Shown piece after piece: positions 50,035-60,091 of a DNA stretch of 64,000 nucleotides. The position numbers and the translations under genes were made by a program. Source of the stretch: a candidate division FCPU426 bacterium (GTDB taxonomy: Bacteria > Oederibacteriota > Muellerivitia > Muellerivitales > Muellerivitaceae). Each line of letters begins with the position of its first letter. The first letter of the stretch is position 1. The stretch is from the NCBI GenBank assembly GCA_963771075.1, contig CAVYSE010000011.1, positions 484,929 through 548,928 of the forward strand, read 5' to 3'. The notes under the pieces are model-generated. The model had not been told where the DNA came from. It saw only the letters and a program-made list of their open reading frames with translations, and searched no databases.

Positions 50035-51043
50035 TTCGAAACAAAGAATATGGATGGGCCTGCTGGTCCTTTTGACAACGAGTTTCATCGCCCTGGATTT
50101 CGGGGGTTGTGGCCAAAAGCCGGGCGTCACCCAGTCCAAGAAAACCATTTATACCTGCGTCATGCACCACCAGATTCGCCGCGACAAGCCTGGGGATTGC
50201 CCCATCTGCGGAATGGCCTTGGTTCCATTGGAACAAATCCAAGGAGAATCGGGGCCATCCGAGGGAAAAAAGATCAAGTATTGGGCCAATCCAATGAATC
50301 CCAACCAGCATAGTCCCAAGCCGATGAAGGACGACATGGGTATGGATTACGTCCCGGTCTACGAGGACGACACGGTCGCCGAGGGGGCCCCCGGGGTCTT
50401 GCAGGGCCTCTCCCCTATCAAGATCAGCCCCTACAAACAACAGTTGATCGGGGTGAGGTTCGCGACCGTTCATAAATCCCCCCTTACAAGAGTCATCCAC
50501 ACGGGGGGGCGTTTCGCGGGGGGCGAAGGCGATTTCGCGGCCATGGCTGGGGATTTCGCGGCGAGAAATTCCATGCGGTCCTCCGGGCGGTATGTGGTGG
50601 CGGATGTTTATGCGCTGGATTTGCCATTTGTTAAAACAGGGCAGAAAGCCGTGGTGTCTTCTTTGACCGGTTCAGGTGAAAGGGTGGAGGGAAAGATCAC
50701 CCACATCTACCCTTACGACGAGACCCAATCACGCGTGACCCGGGTAAAGATCACACTGGACAAGCCCATGGCGGCGGGGCTTTTCGCCAATGTGGATATC
50801 CAGGCCGTCACCCAGCCTCTTTTATCCCTTCCCCCAACGGCAGTCATGGATACGGGAACCCATCGTTATGTTTTCATCCAAATGGAGCCCGGAACCTTTT
50901 CCCCCCGCGAGATCACCGTGGGCTACCAGGGATCGGACTTGTGGGAAGTCACCTCCGGGTTGAAGGAAGGGGACCAAGTAGTCGATGGAGCCGATTTCCT
51001 CATCGACGCGGATTCCAAAATCACTTCGTCATTCGCCGAGTAA
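50021..51043 (+). CDS. Efflux RND periplasmic adaptor (CusB-like) with heavy-metal-binding domains
   Basis: YTCVMH...CPICGMAL, YWANPMNP...MGMDYVPVY, GLKEGDQVV...FLIDADS. Confidence 0.88.
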   Translation: MKIINSKQRIWMGLLVLLTTSFIALDFGGCGQKPGVTQSKKTIYTCVMHHQIRRDKPGDCPICGMALVPLEQIQGESGPSEGKKIKYWANPMNPNQHSPKPMKDDMGMDYVPVYEDDTVAEGAPGVLQGLSPIKISPYKQQLIGVRFATVHKSPLTRVIHTGGRFAGGEGDFAAMAGDFAARNSMRSSGRYVVADVYALDLPFVKTGQKAVVSSLTGSGERVEGKITHIYPYDETQSRVTRVKITLDKPMAAGLFANVDIQAVTQPLLSLPPTAVMDTGTHRYVFIQMEPGTFSPREITVGYQGSDLWEVTSGLKEGDQVVDGADFLIDADSKITSSFAE

Positions 51044-51053
51044 GGGGCTCATC

Positions 51054-54000
51054 ATGATTTCCAAATTGATCGACTGGTGCGGAAAAAACAAATTTTTGGT
51101 TTCGTTGGGGATGCTGGTGGTCATTGTTTGGGGCGTTTGGGCGTTGAAAAACATCCCCCTGGACGCGATACCCGACATTTCAGACACACAAGTGGTGGTT
51201 TACGCCAAGTGGATGAAGAGTCCGGACATACTGGAAGACCAGGTGGCTTACCCCGTCGTGCGGGCGCTTTTGGGAGCCCCCAAGGTGAAAAGCATCCGGG
51301 CCTTTTCGGACTTCGGCTATTCGTACATTTACATCATTTTTGACGACGGCACGGACCCCTACTGGGCACGAAGCCGGGTTTTGGAGTATCTCTCCAAGGT
51401 ACAGGGAACCCTTCCGGAGGGGGTGAAGGTGGAGATGGGGCCGGACGCCACGGGCGTGGGCTGGGTTTACCAGTACGTCTTGGTCGATAAAACCGGACAA
51501 CACACCCTTTCCGAGTTGAAAAGCTACCAGGATTGGAATCTGCGATACCAACTCCAAAGTTTGCCAGGAGTGGCGGAAGTTTCCACCGTTGGGGGCGAGA
51601 CCAAACAGTATCAGGTGGAAGTCAATCCCAATGCCTTGGCCTCTTATGACCTGACTTTTGGACAGGTCTTGGACGCGGTGCGAAGTTCCAACCGGGACGT
51701 GGGCGGAAGGCTTTTGGAAATCAACGGCACCGAATACATGATCCGGGGGTTGGGATATTTGAAGGGTATCTCCGACCTGGAGAAAGTAGTCATAGGCCGG
51801 GACAAGCAGGGAACTCCCATTTTCATCGGGGACATCGCCCATGTCCAAACGGGACCGGAAGTACGCCGGGGTGTGGCCGAGTTGGATGGACAAGGGGAAG
51901 TGGTGGGCGGCATCGTGACCGCGCGCTATGGCGAAAACGCCCTGGCCGTCATCGAGCGGGTCAAGGAAAAGCTGAAAGAACTCAAACCGTCCCTTCCCGC
52001 CGGGGTGGAGATTGTTCCCGTTTATGACCGGTCGGAGCTGATCGACAAGTCCATCGAAACACTTACCCATGAGCTGATCAAGCTCGCCATCGCGGTCGCG
52101 CTGGTGTGCCTCATATTCCTGTGGCACCTGCCCAGTGCCCTGGTCATCATCCTGACCCTGCCGCTGGCCATCCTCATGTCCTTTATCTGCATGAAATACC
52201 TGGGGGTTTCCTCCAACATCATGAGCCTGGGAGGCATCGCCATCGCCATCGGGGCCATGGTGGACGCGTCCATCATCATGGTCGAAAACGCGTGCAAGCG
52301 GCTGGAGGAATGGGAAAAGGGAGGCCAAAAGGGGGACCGCTCGGAAGTCATCCTAAACGCGGCCAAGGAAGTGGGGCCTTCCCTCTTCTATACCCTTTTG
52401 GTCATCACGGTCGGGTTTCTTCCTGTGTTTGCCCTTCAAGGTCAAGAAGGCAAGCTTTTCTCTCCCCTGGCATACACCAAAACCTTTTCGATGTTCTTCG
52501 CCGCTTTTCTTGCCATTACGGTAACGCCTTTCCTGATGGTCGTTTTCCTGAAAGGAAAAATATTGACCGAGGAAGAGCATCCCCTGAATCGTTTATTAGG
52601 CAGGTTTTACGCGAGACCGGCAAAGTGGGTTTTGGAAAACAGGAAAAAGACTCTTTTGGCGGCCCTAGGGCTGGTGGTTGTGACTTTATTTCCCCTCTCA
52701 AGACTAGGAAGTGAATTCATGCCCCCCCTATGGGAAGGCTCCCTGCTTTACATGCCAACCACCTTGCCGGGGATATCGGTAACAGAGGCGGCGCGGGTGC
52801 TTCAAACCCAAGACCGGATCATCAAGTCTTTCCCGGAAGTGGAGCGGGTTTTTGGAAAGGCGGGCCGGGCCGAGACTTCCCTGGACCCTGCCCCTTTCTC
52901 CATGGTGGAAACAACAATTCTTTTGAAGCCGGAAAGCCAATGGCGAAAAGGCATGACCCAGGAAAAACTTCTGCATGATCTGAATGAGGCCTTGCAGTTT
53001 CCCGGCTACACCAACGCCCTGACCATGCCCATCATCAACCGAATCAATATGCTCAGCACGGGGGTGCGAACCCCGATTGGCATCAAAGTTTTGGGCACGG
53101 ATTTCAAGACCCTCGAACGGGTCGGGGTTGAAGTCGAGAATGCCCTCAAACCCCTCAAGGGAACCTCCAGCGTTTACGCTGAAAGGGTAACGGGGGGTTA
53201 TTACGTCGATATCACTCCCCGCAGGGATCAGATCGCGCGTTATGGGCTGAAGATCGAGGATGTGAACGAAATTATTGAAATGGCGATCGGGGGTGACACG
53301 GTTACCACCACCGTGGAAGGCCGGGAACGCTACTCGGTGAGCGTTCGTTACGCCCGTGATTTCCGCGACGATGTCGAGAAGTTGAGGCGTGTCTTGGTGA
53401 CCACCCCCTCGGGAAGCAAGGTCCAGCTGGGCCAATTGGCTGACGTTGGCTTGTCACTGGGTCCGGGCATGATACGCGACGAAAACGGCCTGTTGGCCGG
53501 TTACGTGTACGTGGACATCGAGGGAATCGATCCCGGAACCTACGTGACGGCGGCCAAAAAAACCATCGCCGAAAAAGTAATTCTGCCGGTGGGCACCAGC
53601 CTAGCCTGGAGCGGCCAGTATGAGTACATGACCCGGGCGGCGGAACGCTTCAAGATCATGATTCCGTTGACTCTCCTGATCGTGTTCCTGCTGATCTATT
53701 TCAACACTAAATCCTTCACCGAAACCTTCATCGTGCTTTTGGCCGTCCCTTTTTCCTTGGTCGGGGCGGTATGGCTCCTGTGGATCTTGGGTTACAACAC
53801 CTCGGTGGCGGTATGGGTGGGCGTCATCGCCCTGGCGGGATTGGACGCTGAAACGGGAGTGGTGATGCTTCTTTATTTGAGTCTCTCCTACCGAAAATAC
53901 CGGGAGGAAGGAAAGATGAGGAATATCCAGGACCTGGAGGAATCGGTGATGCACGGTGCCGTCAAACGTCTTCGCCCGAAACTCATGACCGTATCGGCGG

Positions 54001-54212
54001 CTTGGTTCGGGTTGGTGCCGATTCTTTTTTCCACGGGGGTGGGCGCGGATGTCATGAAACGCATCGCGGCTCCCATGGTGGGGGGGGTTTTTACATCTTT
54101 TATCCTCGAACTTCTGGTTTACCCGGTCCTGTTCACCCTTTGGAAGTGGCACGCTGAGGTGAACCCCCAAAAACCGACTGGGTTTTGGAAATGGGTCCAA
54201 AGAATTGGATAA
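51054..54212 (+). CDS. cusA: CusA-type Cu(I)/Ag(I) RND efflux transporter
   Basis: LDAIPDISD, YWARSRVLEYL, GAMVDA, EFMPP / FSMVET / LTMPI methionine triad, MKRIAAPMVGG. Confidence 0.93.
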   Translation: MISKLIDWCGKNKFLVSLGMLVVIVWGVWALKNIPLDAIPDISDTQVVVYAKWMKSPDILEDQVAYPVVRALLGAPKVKSIRAFSDFGYSYIYIIFDDGTDPYWARSRVLEYLSKVQGTLPEGVKVEMGPDATGVGWVYQYVLVDKTGQHTLSELKSYQDWNLRYQLQSLPGVAEVSTVGGETKQYQVEVNPNALASYDLTFGQVLDAVRSSNRDVGGRLLEINGTEYMIRGLGYLKGISDLEKVVIGRDKQGTPIFIGDIAHVQTGPEVRRGVAELDGQGEVVGGIVTARYGENALAVIERVKEKLKELKPSLPAGVEIVPVYDRSELIDKSIETLTHELIKLAIAVALVCLIFLWHLPSALVIILTLPLAILMSFICMKYLGVSSNIMSLGGIAIAIGAMVDASIIMVENACKRLEEWEKGGQKGDRSEVILNAAKEVGPSLFYTLLVITVGFLPVFALQGQEGKLFSPLAYTKTFSMFFAAFLAITVTPFLMVVFLKGKILTEEEHPLNRLLGRFYARPAKWVLENRKKTLLAALGLVVVTLFPLSRLGSEFMPPLWEGSLLYMPTTLPGISVTEAARVLQTQDRIIKSFPEVERVFGKAGRAETSLDPAPFSMVETTILLKPESQWRKGMTQEKLLHDLNEALQFPGYTNALTMPIINRINMLSTGVRTPIGIKVLGTDFKTLERVGVEVENALKPLKGTSSVYAERVTGGYYVDITPRRDQIARYGLKIEDVNEIIEMAIGGDTVTTTVEGRERYSVSVRYARDFRDDVEKLRRVLVTTPSGSKVQLGQLADVGLSLGPGMIRDENGLLAGYVYVDIEGIDPGTYVTAAKKTIAEKVILPVGTSLAWSGQYEYMTRAAERFKIMIPLTLLIVFLLIYFNTKSFTETFIVLLAVPFSLVGAVWLLWILGYNTSVAVWVGVIALAGLDAETGVVMLLYLSLSYRKYREEGKMRNIQDLEESVMHGAVKRLRPKLMTVSAAWFGLVPILFSTGVGADVMKRIAAPMVGGVFTSFILELLVYPVLFTLWKWHAEVNPQKPTGFWKWVQRIG

Positions 54213-54293: not shown

Positions 54294-54579
54294 ATGAAAA
54301 AGTTATTAAGTTTGATGATAGGGGTGGCTTTTGCTGGTTGCCGCCCAGATGGTTTGGGCCGACGGAATGGGCAATATGCCTGGGATGTCCACGCCAATGG
54401 CGGGTGCCACTCCGGTTTCCACGCCGAAGGCTGCTGCGAAGGCGAAGAAGTCCAAGAAAAAAGCCGCGAAACCAGCGGCTCAGGCAGTTTGGGTTTGCCC
54501 CATGGGCGATTACAGCGGCCCCAAAACGACGGATGGGAAATGCCCAAAGTGCGGGATGGATTTGGCCGAGAAGAAGTAA
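54294..54579 (+). pseudogene. Small periplasmic Met-rich heavy-metal-binding protein with a frameshift in its signal peptide
   Basis: Removing one T from TTTT at 54329-54332 gives MKKLLSLMIGVALLVAAQMVWADGMGNMPGM...WVCPM...KCPKCGMDL. Confidence 0.8.
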
Positions 54580-54699
54580 TAAGTTTTTTTCGCGGCGGGC
54601 CATTAGGGCCCGCCGTGTAGTTCGGATTAAAAAATGGGAGAAAAATGAAAAAGTTATTTGGGTCTTTCCCGAGAATAATGGAGTCACCTATGAAAAAGA

Positions 54700-54870
54700 A
54701 TGTCCAGGCAAAAGCGTAGTATCACGGCCCCAAGTCCAACCTGAGTCTCAAAGGACTACAAGTCAGTCACCTATTCGCGGTTGTTTCACCGCACGATAAC
54801 GTTGGACCCGGCCGCTCAATCAGGCCAAGGACCTCAACTCTTGCGGGTTGTGTCAGACCCCGTCGGAGCT
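54700..54870 (-). ncRNA. Predicted bridge/seek RNA of the IS110-family element (boundaries approximate)
   Basis: Structured region with segments matching both strands of the reconstructed target and of the circle junction. Confidence 0.75.
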
Positions 54871-55875
54871 GGCCGGGCAGTCCTCAAAAGCTTCCTTCTT
54901 TCGTAACATATGAAAGATGCTTTTCAGCATAGCCCTTGCTACTGCTATTCGTCCCGCGTTATTCCCATGCTTCTTCTTCACCCTCGTGTATAAGGTCCCA
55001 TACCGTCGGGTTTTGCGAATGGCATGAAGCGAGTTCTCAACCAATATCCAGCGAATCCATTTAGAACCCTGTTTGGTGATGTGGCCGTTGTGGCTTTTTC
55101 CCCCTGATGCGTGAACACTGGGGACCAATCCACCATAAGAACATAGATGTTCCGCGTCCGGGAACCGGCGAATATCCCCAATCTCGCTCAAAATTAATAA
55201 AGCCGAAAAGGCACCCACGCCTGGCATGGTCATCATCAGCTGGGCTTCCGGGCTTTCTGCTGCCATTTTCTTGATCACCTCTTCTGATTTGGCGATCTCT
55301 TGGCCTAGTTCCCGGATTACTTCCATATATCCGTCCAGTTCCAAACGGTAGCAAGGCCGGGTACCTACCGTGGCAAGTTCGCGGAAGTTCTTTATTCCGA
55401 ATCGGTTTTTAGTAACGGGTTCGATTCCCGCCTTGGTCATGACCGAAGTCATCCGGTTTTTGGCTTGTGTTCTCAATTGCACCAGGGAAGCCCGGTACCT
55501 AAGGATTTCCCGTAAGTCGCGGATCTCTCGGGGTGGCACATAGGCTCGTGGCAGCAGATCCACCCGCAAAAGTTGAGCCAGGATTCCCGAATCAATTTTA
55601 TCCGTCTTGATCTTGGCCGAGGCTATGGCTTTGACCTTTTGGGGGTGGGCCAATACCAGGTTGGGGAATCGATCCTCGATGAGTTCGTAAAAGTGATACC
55701 AATGACCTGTGGCTTCTACTACGACCTGGCTACTCACGGGTTGCTTCTTGAAATAAGCCTTTAAAGTATCCGCGTCGTTCTTCAGATCGACTTGTTCCAG
55801 CACCTTTCCTTTCTCATTCACTCTCGTGACGTAGGATGTTTTCTGGTGTAGGTCTACTCCGATATACTGTCCCAC
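54853..55875 (-). CDS. IS110-family DEDD recombinase/transposase
   Basis: IGVDLHQ, VVEATG, KTDKIDS (DEDD); MPGVG, EIGDIRRF, GLVPSVHASGGK serine loop, IAVARAML; GTG start after AGGAGG. Confidence 0.96.
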   Translation of the reverse strand: MGQYIGVDLHQKTSYVTRVNEKGKVLEQVDLKNDADTLKAYFKKQPVSSQVVVEATGHWYHFYELIEDRFPNLVLAHPQKVKAIASAKIKTDKIDSGILAQLLRVDLLPRAYVPPREIRDLREILRYRASLVQLRTQAKNRMTSVMTKAGIEPVTKNRFGIKNFRELATVGTRPCYRLELDGYMEVIRELGQEIAKSEEVIKKMAAESPEAQLMMTMPGVGAFSALLILSEIGDIRRFPDAEHLCSYGGLVPSVHASGGKSHNGHITKQGSKWIRWILVENSLHAIRKTRRYGTLYTRVKKKHGNNAGRIAVARAMLKSIFHMLRKKEAFEDCPASSDGV

Positions 55876-56250
55876 GGCTGCACCTCCTAAGCGTTTTGCA
55901 CCACCTGCAAAGGTGAGTGCCTTTTCGACTCTGGGTTTATCCTAGAGCCTCGTCCCACTTAAGTGGAGACGCTCTACGCTTGGAGCTCTGCAGCCTTTTT
56001 CATGTTATCAGGCCAACATAAAACACTTACTTGTCCGAAGGACCCGGCCCGGCTACTGGGTGCCAAAATCCGATTTTTTGCACATTCGCTGTCTGGTTTA
56101 CCGTCCAACCTGGAAAAAATTCACGCCCGAAGAAGTTCCCATTTGACCATGCGTTCTATTTCGGATTATAAAAATTAAGTTGTTACGGTGTACCCGCCAA
56201 CATGTGGTTGGCGGTTAGGGGAGAAAAATTATGAAGCTGGAGGTCCCCCT

Positions 56251-57966
56251 ATGCCCGTCACGATTGAGGATGTATTAGGACTTCTGCCAGAGCTGTTTCC
56301 AGGAATTCAACAAGTTCCGCTCGCGAACATCAGCCAGCTTCCGGATAACCCGGGCGGCACCCCCAGCGAGGAAGTCATCCTTGGGTTGATGGAAAGCATC
56401 CGGGAGAACGACCTCCAGAACCCGCTCAAGCTCAAACCCAACCGCACCCAACCCCTGGCCGAAGGGGTCCAGATCCATCCAGAGAACCCCCGGATCACCC
56501 TGGAAGGCCGCCCCTGGCGGGTGGAGGACTTCCACTATTGGGTCTTCAGCGGCAACCGGCGTTTGATCGCCTTAAACCGGCTTCAAAAGGATAAGGCCCC
56601 TTGCTATATCACCAACCCTAGCGAGTTGGAAACGGTCGTCAAAGGCCGGATCGATAACGTTGTTGACCAGCGTGGTTGGTGGGTGGATTACCAGGATGTC
56701 GAAAGGGTTATCAAGGCCAACCCCTATGTGACTCAAAGGCAGATAAAGGGGTATTTGGGGTTGGACGATGAGAAAATTAATCGGGCGATCAAGGTATTAC
56801 CCCTCCTTAATTCTCAATCCAGGGACTTAATTGCTCGTGACACGAGCATTTTAAATAAGGGAATTCCGGGTATTTCTGACTTGGCCATCTCCCAATTGGC
56901 CGCCTTGGGCCCTGGTACCGGCCTCAAGCCCGGTCGTCCCAAGAAAGACATGGCCGAAGGGGAGGAACCTCAAAAGCTATACCCCTATCCCCCCATCCCC
57001 CCGGAGACCCAAGACCTCGTTTACCGGGCCCTCCAGGTAGCCTTAGCCCATAAGATGACCGAAAACCAGTTGAAGGGCCTGGTAGCCCATATCCAGGCGG
57101 GGGGCCAGCCTGAAGATTACAAGCTGGTAGTGAAGCCCTCAAAAAAGAAAGGGCCCCCTAAGGGTGGTTCCGGCCCAGGGGGCGGCCCTGGGAGTGGGCC
57201 TGGCGGATCGGGCGGGTCGGGTGGTGGCGGGTTAACTCCCTCTATAGAAACCCCTAAAGTAGCTGACAGTTCGCAGTTGACAGTCGACAGTAAAACAACA
57301 ACTGGCAACCCCCAAAACCCTCAACCTAACCCTACAGCCCCCACTGTAACTATCCCGGTCGTGCCACCCACCCCCCAAAAATCCGGCTTCTGGAATGCCC
57401 TCAAAAAAGTCTGGCAGGGCTTTATCGGTGCAGTCCTCAAAGCCTTCTTTGCTTCTGGCCCGAGGCCTCAAGTTGAGGGCCAAGGTTTGATTGCCCCAGG
57501 ATCTAAAACAGATCCTGGGGAAGTTTCATTCTTTTGGGGCACCATGGCCGGCATCCCCTGGATCAAGGCCATCCGGGCCAAGATCAAGTCAGGGCAAGAC
57601 CTCACCCTCTGGGAAAAGCTGTTTCTGGTGGCGGCCTTCTTTGGGCGGATCTTGCATTGGACCTGGCATAAGACATGGCCCCGGACCAAGTGGTTCTTCG
57701 GGTTGGTTTGGCAATACATGAAAATAGGCTTGAACGCCACCCTAAGGTTCTTGGGAGAAGTGGTGGGCAAGCCCGCCAAAAAAGTGATCCAGGGCGTGGT
57801 GGGTATCGCCTTGGTGTTGGGGCTGGCCTATGGCCTCTATCTATTCTTCTTCCACCCGGCGGGACTAAGGGGCTTGGTGGGCCGCGCCACCTCCGGGGTG
57901 ATCCATTGGGTGGGGTCTTGGGTAAACCCTTGGGAAGGAGATACTAAGACAGTTCAAAACCAGTAG
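56251..57966 (+). CDS. ParB/Srx N-terminal domain plus HTH protein with Gly/Pro linker and C-terminal TM helices; probably the 5' part of a broken longer gene
   Basis: LMESIRENDLQNPL, FSGNRRLIAL, TQRQIKGYLG...INRAIKVL; TM segment VVGIALVLGLAYGLYLFFF; GGAGGT RBS. Confidence 0.7.
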   Translation: MPVTIEDVLGLLPELFPGIQQVPLANISQLPDNPGGTPSEEVILGLMESIRENDLQNPLKLKPNRTQPLAEGVQIHPENPRITLEGRPWRVEDFHYWVFSGNRRLIALNRLQKDKAPCYITNPSELETVVKGRIDNVVDQRGWWVDYQDVERVIKANPYVTQRQIKGYLGLDDEKINRAIKVLPLLNSQSRDLIARDTSILNKGIPGISDLAISQLAALGPGTGLKPGRPKKDMAEGEEPQKLYPYPPIPPETQDLVYRALQVALAHKMTENQLKGLVAHIQAGGQPEDYKLVVKPSKKKGPPKGGSGPGGGPGSGPGGSGGSGGGGLTPSIETPKVADSSQLTVDSKTTTGNPQNPQPNPTAPTVTIPVVPPTPQKSGFWNALKKVWQGFIGAVLKAFFASGPRPQVEGQGLIAPGSKTDPGEVSFFWGTMAGIPWIKAIRAKIKSGQDLTLWEKLFLVAAFFGRILHWTWHKTWPRTKWFFGLVWQYMKIGLNATLRFLGEVVGKPAKKVIQGVVGIALVLGLAYGLYLFFFHPAGLRGLVGRATSGVIHWVGSWVNPWEGDTKTVQNQ

Positions 57967-60029: not shown

Positions 60030-60051
60030 TAGATAATATAAAATAAAGACC

Positions 60052-60091
60052 TGACCCCGTTATTTGTATTTTGACCCCGTTATTTGTATTT
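60052..60091 (+). repeat. Perfect 20-bp tandem duplication
   Basis: TGACCCCGTTATTTGTATTT x2. Confidence 0.9.

Follow-up and report, generated by a model that had tools for sequence, protein, structure and literature searches.

The window analysed here, that is, the whole 64,000-nt stretch of DNA to which all coordinates refer, carries on its minus strand an IS1111-type insertion sequence of 1324 bp (54684-56010), and all guide and junction strings are read on that strand. The left junction reads GTTGGCC-TGA-TAAC-ATGAAAAAG (56017-55995, minus) and the right junction CTTTTTCAT-AGG-TGA-CTCC (54698-54680, minus). A preliminary description of the region had read these junctions, the guide segments and the hairpin between two of them correctly to the base; its span for the element (54684..56016) was right as to location but too long, as it takes in six nucleotides of target (TTGGCC) as well as both TGA copies. 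The features are given below in minus-strand order, those of the RNA, the guides and the promoter being predictions.

56011..56016, minus strand: left target flank TTGGCC, outside the element (junction and copy comparison)
56008..56010, minus strand: core TGA, left copy; first 3 bp of the element by IS1111 convention (copies, uninterrupted sites)
56002..56007, minus strand: TAACAT, first bases of the left end; right donor half-site TAAC and predicted -10 box
55995..56003, minus strand: left subterminal inverted repeat ATGAAAAAG, pairs with 54690-54698
54853..55875, minus strand: transposase gene, 340 aa, GTG start 7 nt after AGGAGG, TGA stop (ORF, Pfam)
54866..54877, minus strand: target-loop closing stem, 5' strand CCCGGCCAGCTC; falls within the final codons of the transposase ORF (covariation)
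54856..54861, minus strand: right target guide GGGGTC, complement of GACCCC; last two codons of the gene
54830..54854, minus strand: apical hairpin of the target-binding loop (covariation, helix 2)
54820..54828, minus strand: left target guide TTGGCCTGA, identical to the left side of the target plus core
54807..54817, minus strand: 3' strand of the target-loop closing stem, GAGCGGCCGGG (covariation, helix 1)
54732..54809, minus strand: distal stem GGGTCCAAC (54801-54809) / GTTGGACTT (54732-54740), which would close the donor loop
54795..54800, minus strand: right donor guide GTTATC, complement of GATAAC at the left end
54777..54792, minus strand: apical hairpin of the donor-binding loop, GCGGT-GAAACA-ACCGC (covariation, helix 3)
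54767..54774, minus strand: left donor guide ATAGGTGA, same sequence as right end and core
54701..54706, minus strand: TGGACA, predicted -35 box, which the circle would place 17 nt ahead of the left-end TAACAT
54690..54698, minus strand: right subterminal inverted repeat CTTTTTCAT, pairs with 55995-56003
54684..54689, minus strand: AGG (3-bp right extension), then the right copy of the core TGA
54680..54683, minus strand: right target flank CTCC, outside the element (junction and copy comparison)

The ends carry the asymmetric terminal extensions of the IS1111 family, TGATAAC (7 bp) on the left and AGG (3 bp) on the right, and the subterminal inverted repeats form nine perfect pairs (11 of 16 on extension), which places them at the short end of the IS1111 range. 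In the parts of the two 2024 reports used here, the IS1111 group is defined by a GL-P----S(t)G C-terminal motif and a transposase of 330-350 aa, with terminal extensions of 7 (or 6) bp on the left and 3 bp on the right (Siddiquee et al. 2024, PMC11187229), and the length of the subterminal inverted repeats is given as usually 11-13 bp by Siddiquee et al. and as 7-17 bp by Durrant et al. (2024, PMC11208160). The 340-aa ORF matches the Pfam domains PF01548 (E 7.5e-23) and PF02371 (E 4.1e-24) and contains the GL-P----SG motif as GLVPSVHASG. The IS621 transposase is a homologue (E 1.8e-9) that aligns with it at the catalytic motifs around D8, E54, D92, D95 and S257, and among 25 homologues the four acidic residues are invariant and S257 nearly so. 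Judged by these domains and motifs, the protein is a DEDD (RuvC-like) transposase of the IS1111 type within the IS110 family. Non-coding DNA amounts to 166 nt downstream of the stop and 135 nt upstream of the start, a small difference.

Seven full copies, 100% identical, are present in the genome, and the element is an intact, recently copied IS1111-type mobile element. The copies had been expected in related sites, and all seven were found in NNGRCC-TGA-CCCC-like sites, with the left flanks TTGGCC (two copies), CAGGCC, GTAGCC and AAGACC (three copies) and the right flanks CCCC (five), CTCC (one) and TTGA (one, the copy with a tail duplication). Thus xxxxCC-TGA is common to 7/7 copies and C(C/T)CC on the right to 6/7; the core TGA stands on both sides of every copy and only once in uninterrupted sites. 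There is one preferred target and one orientation, and target duplication is limited to the shared core. By our own count the genome holds 46 uninterrupted NNGNCCTGACCCC sites, including paralogues of the occupied sites, and the uninterrupted paralogous sites with a single TGA fix the ends, so that the empty target and the ends stand as first read. The natural target is a 32-34-nt inverted repeat bounding elements of about 1 kb whose IS200-like Y1 transposase is fused to a DnaA-type HTH. Interpretation of the target as an integron attC site or a Tn3-type inverted repeat was rejected, as the flanked genes are IS200-like Y1 transposases.

Around and after the stop codon of the transposase gene stand, in this order, GGGGTC, TTGGCCTGA, GTTATC and ATAGGTGA, with GGGGTC 27 nt 5' of TTGGCCTGA. 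GGGGTC complements the right side of the target and part of the core, and it makes up the last two codons of the gene because the stop TGA (54853-54855) adjoins it directly, which agrees with the earlier proposal that one guide overlaps the end of the ORF. Its pairing with the CTCC site of the window needs one G-T wobble, as previously stated; to the usual target, GACCCC, GGGGTC is fully complementary, CCCC being the right flank in five of the seven genomic copies. With its 5' part, the predicted RNA covers the final eight codons and the stop of the transposase gene, and the predicted span is about 72 nt for the first loop and about 144 nt for both loops. When the 203-nt region was shuffled 200,000 times, TTGGCCTGA occurred in 181 shuffles, ATAGGTGA in 606 and both together in one, and at least three of the four guide segments were found in 3/200,000; chance is excluded as the source of the four-segment arrangement. 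Occupancy in the genome includes imperfect matches: the AAGACC-TGA sites (3/7 copies) have five contiguous bases in common with the 9-nt left target guide, or seven with one G-T wobble, and no insertion is present in the only uninterrupted perfect target, TTGGCCTGACCCC at C1:40564, or in 13 AAGACCTGACCCC sites. In one genomic copy a 136-nt tail duplication is joined exactly after TTGGCCTGA, the DNA of the left target guide.

A single-sequence fold of a 207-nt region gave z = -1.46, with a lowest-energy fold that mixes both loops; as this was uninformative, the structure was taken from an alignment of 13 sequences and 21 pairs. Within this alignment 91.9% of the cells were paired, versus 28.9-43.3% with the partners slid, and changes on both sides were seen in 18 of the 21 pairs; the observed values were reached in none of 500 shuffles. 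Such two-sided changes occurred in 10 of the 12 pairs of helix 1 (the target-loop closing stem), in all four pairs of helix 2 (the target-loop apical hairpin) and in four of the five pairs of helix 3 (the donor-loop apical hairpin). The stem GGTCCAAC/GTTGGACT, earlier suggested to close the donor loop, does form eight pairs in the window, one of them G-U, but it is not present in all relatives: equivalent distal stems were identified in L031, L036 and L046, whereas in other relatives a stem immediately follows the left donor guide instead, and the donor loop may be closed at either of these two positions. An Rfam scan of 54400-56300 with E up to 1 returned two chance-level hits and no bridge RNA family.

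A single-protein search of the genome contig collection gave no related loci, whereas an alignment-based scan did find them. The best match in the collection has 60% protein identity and the relatives are spread across several phyla; among the genomes of 40 relatives and the genome of the element itself (G000), a close homologue was identified only in G029 (51% identity, four copies). The relatives' sites were chosen by a pattern requiring TGA at both ends (34/82 loci), so the conservation of the core among them is partly by construction. Guide order was constant across 33 relatives' sites, and an exact repeat of the right end (at least 8 nt) stood at the left donor guide position in 32 of them; the left flank with core was found at the guide (at least 7 nt) in 22, and the complement of core and right flank (at least 7 nt) in 20, the relatives in these counts being kin rather than independent.

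Covariation of the segments with flanks and ends had been put forward in the preliminary description as a check, and the guides do track the flanks and ends of each relative. In a permutation test on 25 distinct guide regions, in which guides were compared with their own flanks or left end, the observed sums were 171 for the left target guide (permuted mean 105.5), 152 for the right target guide (110.4) and 105 for the right donor guide (61.9), and in each case none of 10,000 permutations reached the observed value. Individual loci exhibit the same dependence. For instance, in the near-identical pair L050/L051 the right target guides, CGGGGTCA and CAGGGTCA, are one base apart, and the right flanks, CCCCG and CCCTG, differ to match. 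In G029 the left-target-guide position reads AAGATGTGA, for the target CAAGATG-TGA. The left donor guide varies with the right end across subgroups, as ATAGGTGA, ATAGATGA, CATAAGTGA, CATGAGTGA and ATGGATGA. The right donor guide is exact in the window; overall its exact matches are 3-7 nt, several relatives having only 3-5 nt. The guide pattern persists, with different targets, in relatives down to about 37% protein identity.

The identification of an IS1111-type, predicted RNA-guided recombinase is thus supported by the domains, the motif, the ends, the guide order and the covariation, and it is very probable that this intact element has a 3' region that would yield a two-loop bridge RNA guiding the recombinase. 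The 3' non-coding region would be transcribed into this bridge (long seek) RNA, the first loop of which may read the target via GGGGTC and TTGGCCTGA and the second the donor via GTTATC and ATAGGTGA. By analogy with ISEc11, ISPa11 and IS621, the element would excise as a circle joined at CATAGG-TGA-TAAC. As in studied relatives, the circle junction may create a promoter (TGGACA, 17 nt, TAACAT) for the gene and the RNA, the recombinase-bound RNA would pair with both strands of target and donor, and strand exchange would take place in the TGA core common to both, with no duplication of the target. Among 27 distinct relatives, the TAACAT position has at least 4/6 matches to TATAAT in 23 and the TGGACA position is TTGACA-like (at least 5/6) in nine; a promoter scan of the linear element gave no sigma-70-like sites. 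Contigs from four DNA metagenome runs (four studies) over 54300-56400 contained no circle-junction or empty-site joint; contigs drop rare forms and therefore say nothing about circles. The contigs only added more insertion flanks, as well as a left-flank repeat variant connected to different DNA.

The function of the second loop may be judged differently. It has to be considered that only the first loop, as a short seekRNA, is functional and that the recombinase recognises the ends by protein contacts with the subterminal inverted repeats, in which case the matches of the second loop to the ends would be dispensable or would serve processing or regulation. For ISEc11, the parts of Siddiquee et al. 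used here report that an 82-nt short seekRNA with the target loop only is enough for movement and leave the role of the long form unresolved (PMC11187229), and covariation is consequently the sole ground for donor-loop function in the IS1111 family. The shortness of the right donor guide matches points the same way, as does the limited variation of the donor sequences within the clade: most close relatives have CATAGG-TGA, so that informative changes are fewer. However, covariation between the right donor guide position and the opening bases of the left end exceeds all 10,000 permutations, the left donor guide differs between subgroups in step with the right end, and the hairpin between the donor guides keeps its pairing through compensatory changes. 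Donor complementarity is also reported in the loops of a few inspected IS1111 members in the parts of Durrant et al. used here (PMC11208160). An element that depends on its first loop only is therefore regarded as unlikely.

Far less probable still is an origin of the matches that involves no guiding at all: an internal second right end would be left over from nested or alternative ends, a target copy would have been acquired through imprecise excision, and the protein alone would pick the site. As such an origin would have it, ATAGGTGA simply repeats the right end in direct orientation, and the 136-nt tail duplication demonstrates that end-related rearrangements happen. Nevertheless, the positions of the four segments are constant within a set of helices that covariation supports, two segments are reverse complements and not repeats, and the pattern recurs in relatives as distant as noted above, with different targets; the covariation contradicts leftover ends, and the mechanism experimentally shown for the family explains all of the pattern.

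Guide RNAs and their downstream position in IS1111 were published in 2024 (Siddiquee et al.; Durrant et al.), and the two-loop RNA-guided recombinase preferred here involves no new mechanism. Compared with ISEc11, ISPa11 and ISKpn4/ISPst6, as presented in the parts of PMC11187229 used here, the element agrees in its DEDD transposase, which has the GL-P----SG motif and a length of about 340 aa, in having subterminal repeats and 7-bp/3-bp extensions, in the guide region downstream of the gene, and in the guide order, with two matches that overlap in the target; in IS1111 members of that source, the guide pairing with the top strand stands 5' to that for the bottom strand. The predicted lengths of about 72 and about 144 nt compare with 82-96 nt (short) and 148-172 nt (long) for the RNAs of those elements, and a bridge RNA is predicted in the right end of 93% of IS1111s according to the parts of PMC11208160 at hand. 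What differs from the three systems is the target (NNGRCC-TGA-CCCC) and the ends, known here from sequence alone, and the overlap of the predicted RNA with the end of the gene.

The shared core of IS621 is a CT dinucleotide, whereas that of the window element has 3 nt (TGA), and the subterminal inverted repeats of the window element are long in comparison with IS621. Both systems, as far as the consulted parts of PMC11208160 describe IS621 (8wt6 and others), have two internal loops, one for target and one for donor, with one identical and one complementary guide per loop and a core shared by donor and target. Unlike in IS621, where the RNA region lies in the left end, it lies here in the right end, and the guide order within the loops is reversed. 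Another member of the IS110 family, ISPpu9, inserts into REP sequences of Pseudomonas putida, as stated in the parts of PMC12288879 used here; both elements home into a short repeat that is part of a different mobile or repeat system, with a single position and orientation, but the repeat in the present case is the inverted repeat bounding Y1-transposase elements and not REP.

A useful natural test case is provided by this locus, with seven identical copies, many empty targets in the same genome and relatives whose guides, targets and ends are mutually readable. It bears on natural guide mismatch tolerance, as three of the seven insertions are at mismatch or wobble sites and the perfect site lacks an insertion. 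As candidate tools, such recombinases number in the thousands, and in this one the overlap of the right target guide with the coding sequence would constrain retargeting unless the RNA were supplied separately. The locus also bears on a possible role of the second loop in the long RNA of the IS1111 branch, the reading of the IS ends. Tentatively, and with more doubt than confidence, it may be suggested that in this widespread IS1111 clade the second loop reads both IS ends and that the DNA of the left target guide doubles as a half-target. If so, a match to the left side and core alone would be enough for strand exchange with the right end, the half-target would explain the 136-nt tail duplication, with the guide-coding DNA acting as a built-in self-target, and IS1111 elements would be full two-loop bridge systems on a fixed TGA core.

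The insertion sequence on the minus strand is an IS1111-type element in which a DEDD transposase gene is followed by a predicted two-loop guide RNA (seekRNA or bridge RNA), and the decoding of its guides in the preliminary description was right, being backed by copies of the element, by empty sites and by covariation among relatives. All junctions and segments of that description are where it had placed them:

Minus strand (sequence reading): left junction, GTTGGCC-TGA-TAAC-ATGAAAAAG
Minus strand (sequence reading): right junction, CTTTTTCAT-AGG-TGA-CTCC
54853-55875, minus strand: 340-aa ORF, GTG start 7 nt 3' of AGGAGG
54856-54861, minus strand: GGGGTC, right target guide
54820-54828, minus strand: TTGGCCTGA, left target guide (9-mer)
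54795-54800, minus strand: GTTATC, right donor guide
54777-54792, minus strand: hairpin GCGGT/ACCGC
54767-54774, minus strand: ATAGGTGA, left donor guide (8-mer)

The span first given, 54684-56016, does contain the element but also counts in six target nucleotides and the TGA on both sides; as uninterrupted paralogous sites carry a single TGA, the element is TAAC...CATAGG plus one TGA, 1324 bp. The claimed overlap of a guide with the last codons was borne out, in that GGGGTC lies directly 5' of the transposase stop codon and the coding sequence also takes in the 5' side of the stem at 54866-54877 that closes the first loop. When the 203-nt region was shuffled 200,000 times, the 9-mer appeared in 181 shuffles, the 8-mer in 606 and both in one, and at least three of the four segments were present in three; the segment matches are not produced by chance.

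The genome of the window (G000; 4.39 Mb, 28 contigs) contains seven full copies at 100% identity, along with fragments. Their left flanks are TTGGCC (two), CAGGCC, GTAGCC and AAGACC (three), each followed by TGA, and past the second TGA the right flanks are CCCC in five, CTCC in the window copy and TTGA in a copy on contig C28. The usual target GACCCC pairs perfectly with GGGGTC, while the CTCC site of the window needs one rG-dT wobble, as had been claimed. There are 46 uninterrupted matches to NNGNCCTGACCCC in this genome, by a count of the individual matches. They include paralogues of occupied sites, among these 13 AAGACCTGACCCC and one CAGGCCTGACCCC, with a single TGA. The sole uninterrupted perfect site in the genome (TTGGCCTGACCCC, C1:40564) has no element inserted, and its six TTGTCCTGACCCC and 13 AAGACCTGACCCC sites are likewise unoccupied, whereas three of the seven insertions lie in AAGACC sites, where the match to the left target guide is five contiguous bases, or seven with one G-T wobble. 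These occupancies do not fit a simple best-match reading of target choice.

Several other occurrences were noted in the same genome. The 9-mer TTGGCCTGA also lies within a palindrome of another repeat family, TTGGCCTGAATTCGGCCAA, at six places (e.g. C1:58426 and C21:16468), all unoccupied by the element and with a right side that mismatches the right target guide. At C18:281540-283124 (L008/L009) two partial copies stand head to head, one covering bases 5-935 (100% identical) and one, a 93% variant, bases 5-685, with C-terminal fragments of a Y1-transposase gene on either side; the arrangement may stem from rearrangement or, near a contig end, from faulty assembly. Two solitary right-end fragments were found, one of 37 nt at 100% identity adjoining a tandem TGACCCCGTTC repeat (C6:2793-2829, L012), the other diverged and without the terminal CATAGGTGA (C1:118275-118331, L011).

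The covariation check proposed in the preliminary description was run, and the guides vary with the flanks and ends of each relative. A genome of the same phylum (G029) holds four copies of an element with a 51% identical transposase, whose right end and right target are those of the window (CATAGG-TGA-CCCC), and whose left target is CAAGATG and left end starts with TGTG. Its non-coding region carries, in order, GGGGTCA, AAGATGTGA, TTCATCA, a hairpin and ATAGGTGA; the left target guide has thus changed jointly with its target. Scanning the genome collection with an alignment returned 80 loci from Nitrospirota, Armatimonadota, Actinomycetota, Chloroflexota, archaea and others. A scripted end pattern (TGA-N2-5-ATGAA ... 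TTCAT-N2-4-TGA with inverted repeat) was present in 34 of the 82 sequences made up of the window, G029 and the 80 loci, and the analysis went on with these 34; many of the other 48 are cut contigs or have other ends. Conservation of TGA within the 34 is by construction, because TGA is part of the search pattern. L041 duplicates the G029 locus and was dropped, leaving 33 sites. In 32 of these, an exact repeat of at least 8 nt, made of the final bases of the right end and the core, lies upstream; the left flank plus core recurs over at least 7 nt in 22, and the complement of core plus right flank is present over at least 7 nt in 20. The order does not vary, running from the right target guide through the left target guide (and the right donor guide) to the left donor guide, and the distances between them are similar. 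Across subgroups the left donor guide shifts with the right end (ATAGGTGA, ATAGATGA, CATAAGTGA, CATGAGTGA, ATGGATGA), and two near-identical elements, L050 and L051, are one guide base apart (CGGGGTCA vs CAGGGTCA), their right flanks differing correspondingly (CCCCG vs CCCTG). Several Solirubrobacterales relatives have only 2-4 matching bases on the left, which again does not fit simple best matching.

Targets were also exchanged among the 25 distinct guide regions in 10,000 permutations, with match lengths summed. The observed sums of 171 for the left target guide, 152 for the right target guide and 105 for the right donor guide (permuted means 105.5, 110.4 and 61.9) were reached in none of them; with the 15 closer relatives alone they were reached in 0, 45 and 0, respectively, and these counts are not probabilities, because the relatives are not independent.

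The predicted RNA structure shows compensatory changes. RNAalifold on 13 sequences gave three helices, namely the stem closing the first loop and apical hairpins between the target guides and between the donor guides. In this alignment 91.9% of cells are paired, and shifting the partners by 1-3 columns lowers the share to 28.9-43.3%; changes on both sides occur in 18 of 21 pairs, and the observed values were reached in 0 of 500 shuffles. The distal stem that had been proposed to close the donor loop, GGTCCAAC/GTTGGACT, is present with 8 pairs and has equivalents in three relatives (L031, L036, L046), but eight others form a stem immediately 3' of the left donor guide instead, so that either stem may close the second loop. 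The first loop alone (54806-54877) measures about 72 nt, the two together about 144 nt; lengths given for published seekRNAs are 82-96 nt (short) and 148-172 nt (long) (PMC13604230).

All testable features of the IS1111 family are found in the element. The ORF matches the Pfam domains DEDD_Tnp_IS110 and Transposase_20, its GLVPSVHASG fits the motif GL-P----S(t)G, and its 340 aa lie within the 330-350 described for IS1111 transposases together with that motif (PMC11187229). Among transposases of solved structure it matches those of IS621 and ISCro4 (E about 2e-9), with YIGVD, EATG, KTDKID and PSVHASG aligned to their counterparts. Across an alignment of 25 homologues D8, E54, D92 and D95 never vary, and S257 hardly does; by analogy with the family literature these residues would be catalytic. 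A large protein collection holds 4071 homologues at E <=1e-20, the closest 97% and 85% identical and mostly from short metagenome contigs. Outside the 9-bp subterminal repeat the left end has 7 more bp (TGATAAC) and the right end 3 (AGG), an asymmetry described as typical of IS1111 members (PMC11187229). According to the same source, IS1111 seekRNAs carry a top-strand-complementary segment 5' of a bottom-strand match, the two overlapping in the target; here GGGGTC lies 5' of TTGGCCTGA and both cover GA of the core.

As for the target itself, there are units of about 1 kb bounded by inverted repeats of 32-34 nt, and it is within these repeats that the AAGACC-TGA-CCCC and TTGGCC-TGA-CCCC sites are found. 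The protein encoded by each unit combines an IS200-like Y1 transposase domain with a DnaA-type HTH. Two families of such units were distinguished (L110, C3:234900-236200; L111, C1:39400-40720), and in one examined unit the Y1 gene is split into two ORFs. By tblastn 29 pieces of Y1 genes were located in the genome, several adjoining element copies or fragments; among the 82 relatives' loci a Y1 homologue stands beside the insertion in two (L042, L048). The repeat that houses the insertion described here is a solitary one and belongs to the second type, and an uninterrupted site of the Y1-repeat kind is also present in the window near 60046-60058 (C11:544974). Homing into repeats of other mobile systems is already known in the family, ISPpu9 homing into REP sequences (PMC12288879), and Tn21 inverted repeats and attC sites are also known targets. 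At several places (right flanks of L003 and L006; C11:544974; C26:77295) a tandem duplication starting with TGACCCC directly follows a TGACCCC site, for example TGACCCCGTTTCG twice or an 18-20-nt unit twice; these may be footprints of Y1 elements or of excision of the insertion sequence. Beside the insertion, a 592-aa ORF (56188-57966, plus strand) has an apparently ParB-like N-terminal part, joined by a long linker rich in Gly and Pro to a C-terminal part that is hydrophobic. On the other side a 1075-aa ORF (50985-54212, plus strand), by eye resembling a CusA/CzcA-type RND efflux pump, is followed by a small ORF (54331-54579, plus strand) with a terminal CxxC...CxxC-like motif.

In the C28 copy (C28:109624-111088, L005/L010) the tail of the element is duplicated in tandem over 136 nt. 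The junction lies exactly 3' of the internal TTGGCCTGA, the stretch encoding the left target guide, and a normal CCCCAATGTTC (CCCC) flank comes after the second right end. Exchange of a right end with the DNA of the left target guide would yield this arrangement; the case is single, and the right half of the pseudo-target, TTGAGC, mismatches the right target guide. Insertion of a second copy at this place with subsequent homologous deletion could also account for the duplication.

By analogy with studied relatives, gene and RNA would be transcribed, the RNA bound by the recombinase, a circle formed from the element and strands exchanged within TGA. A circle with one TGA would set TGGACA (54701-54706) 17 nt before TAACAT (56002-56007). 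Among 27 distinct relatives the -35-like box is TTGACA or one mismatch off in nine, and the first six bases of the left end have at least four matches to TATAAT in 23. A promoter scan of the linear element returned no promoter-like site, and a circle-junction promoter has been described for the IS1111 family (PMC11187229); the predicted junction boxes agree with the gene and the RNA being transcribed together from the circle. Of 21 listed public runs, 20 contain some or all of the stretch; they are metagenomes of soil, bog, lake and peat, come from 9 studies, and in 12 cases contain at least half of its words. In contigs of four of these runs the element has other flanks, which together with the 100% identity of the copies fits recent activity.

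For 93% of IS1111 elements, the predictions of Durrant et al. place a bridge RNA in the right end, and the examples they inspected showed target and donor complementarity (PMC11208160); Siddiquee et al. demonstrated seekRNA experimentally for four IS1111 members (PMC11187229). The supplementary lists of elements and targets of both studies might already hold a close relative. The element, whose interest the preliminary description overrated, is a further member of this already described guide-RNA group of the IS1111 family.
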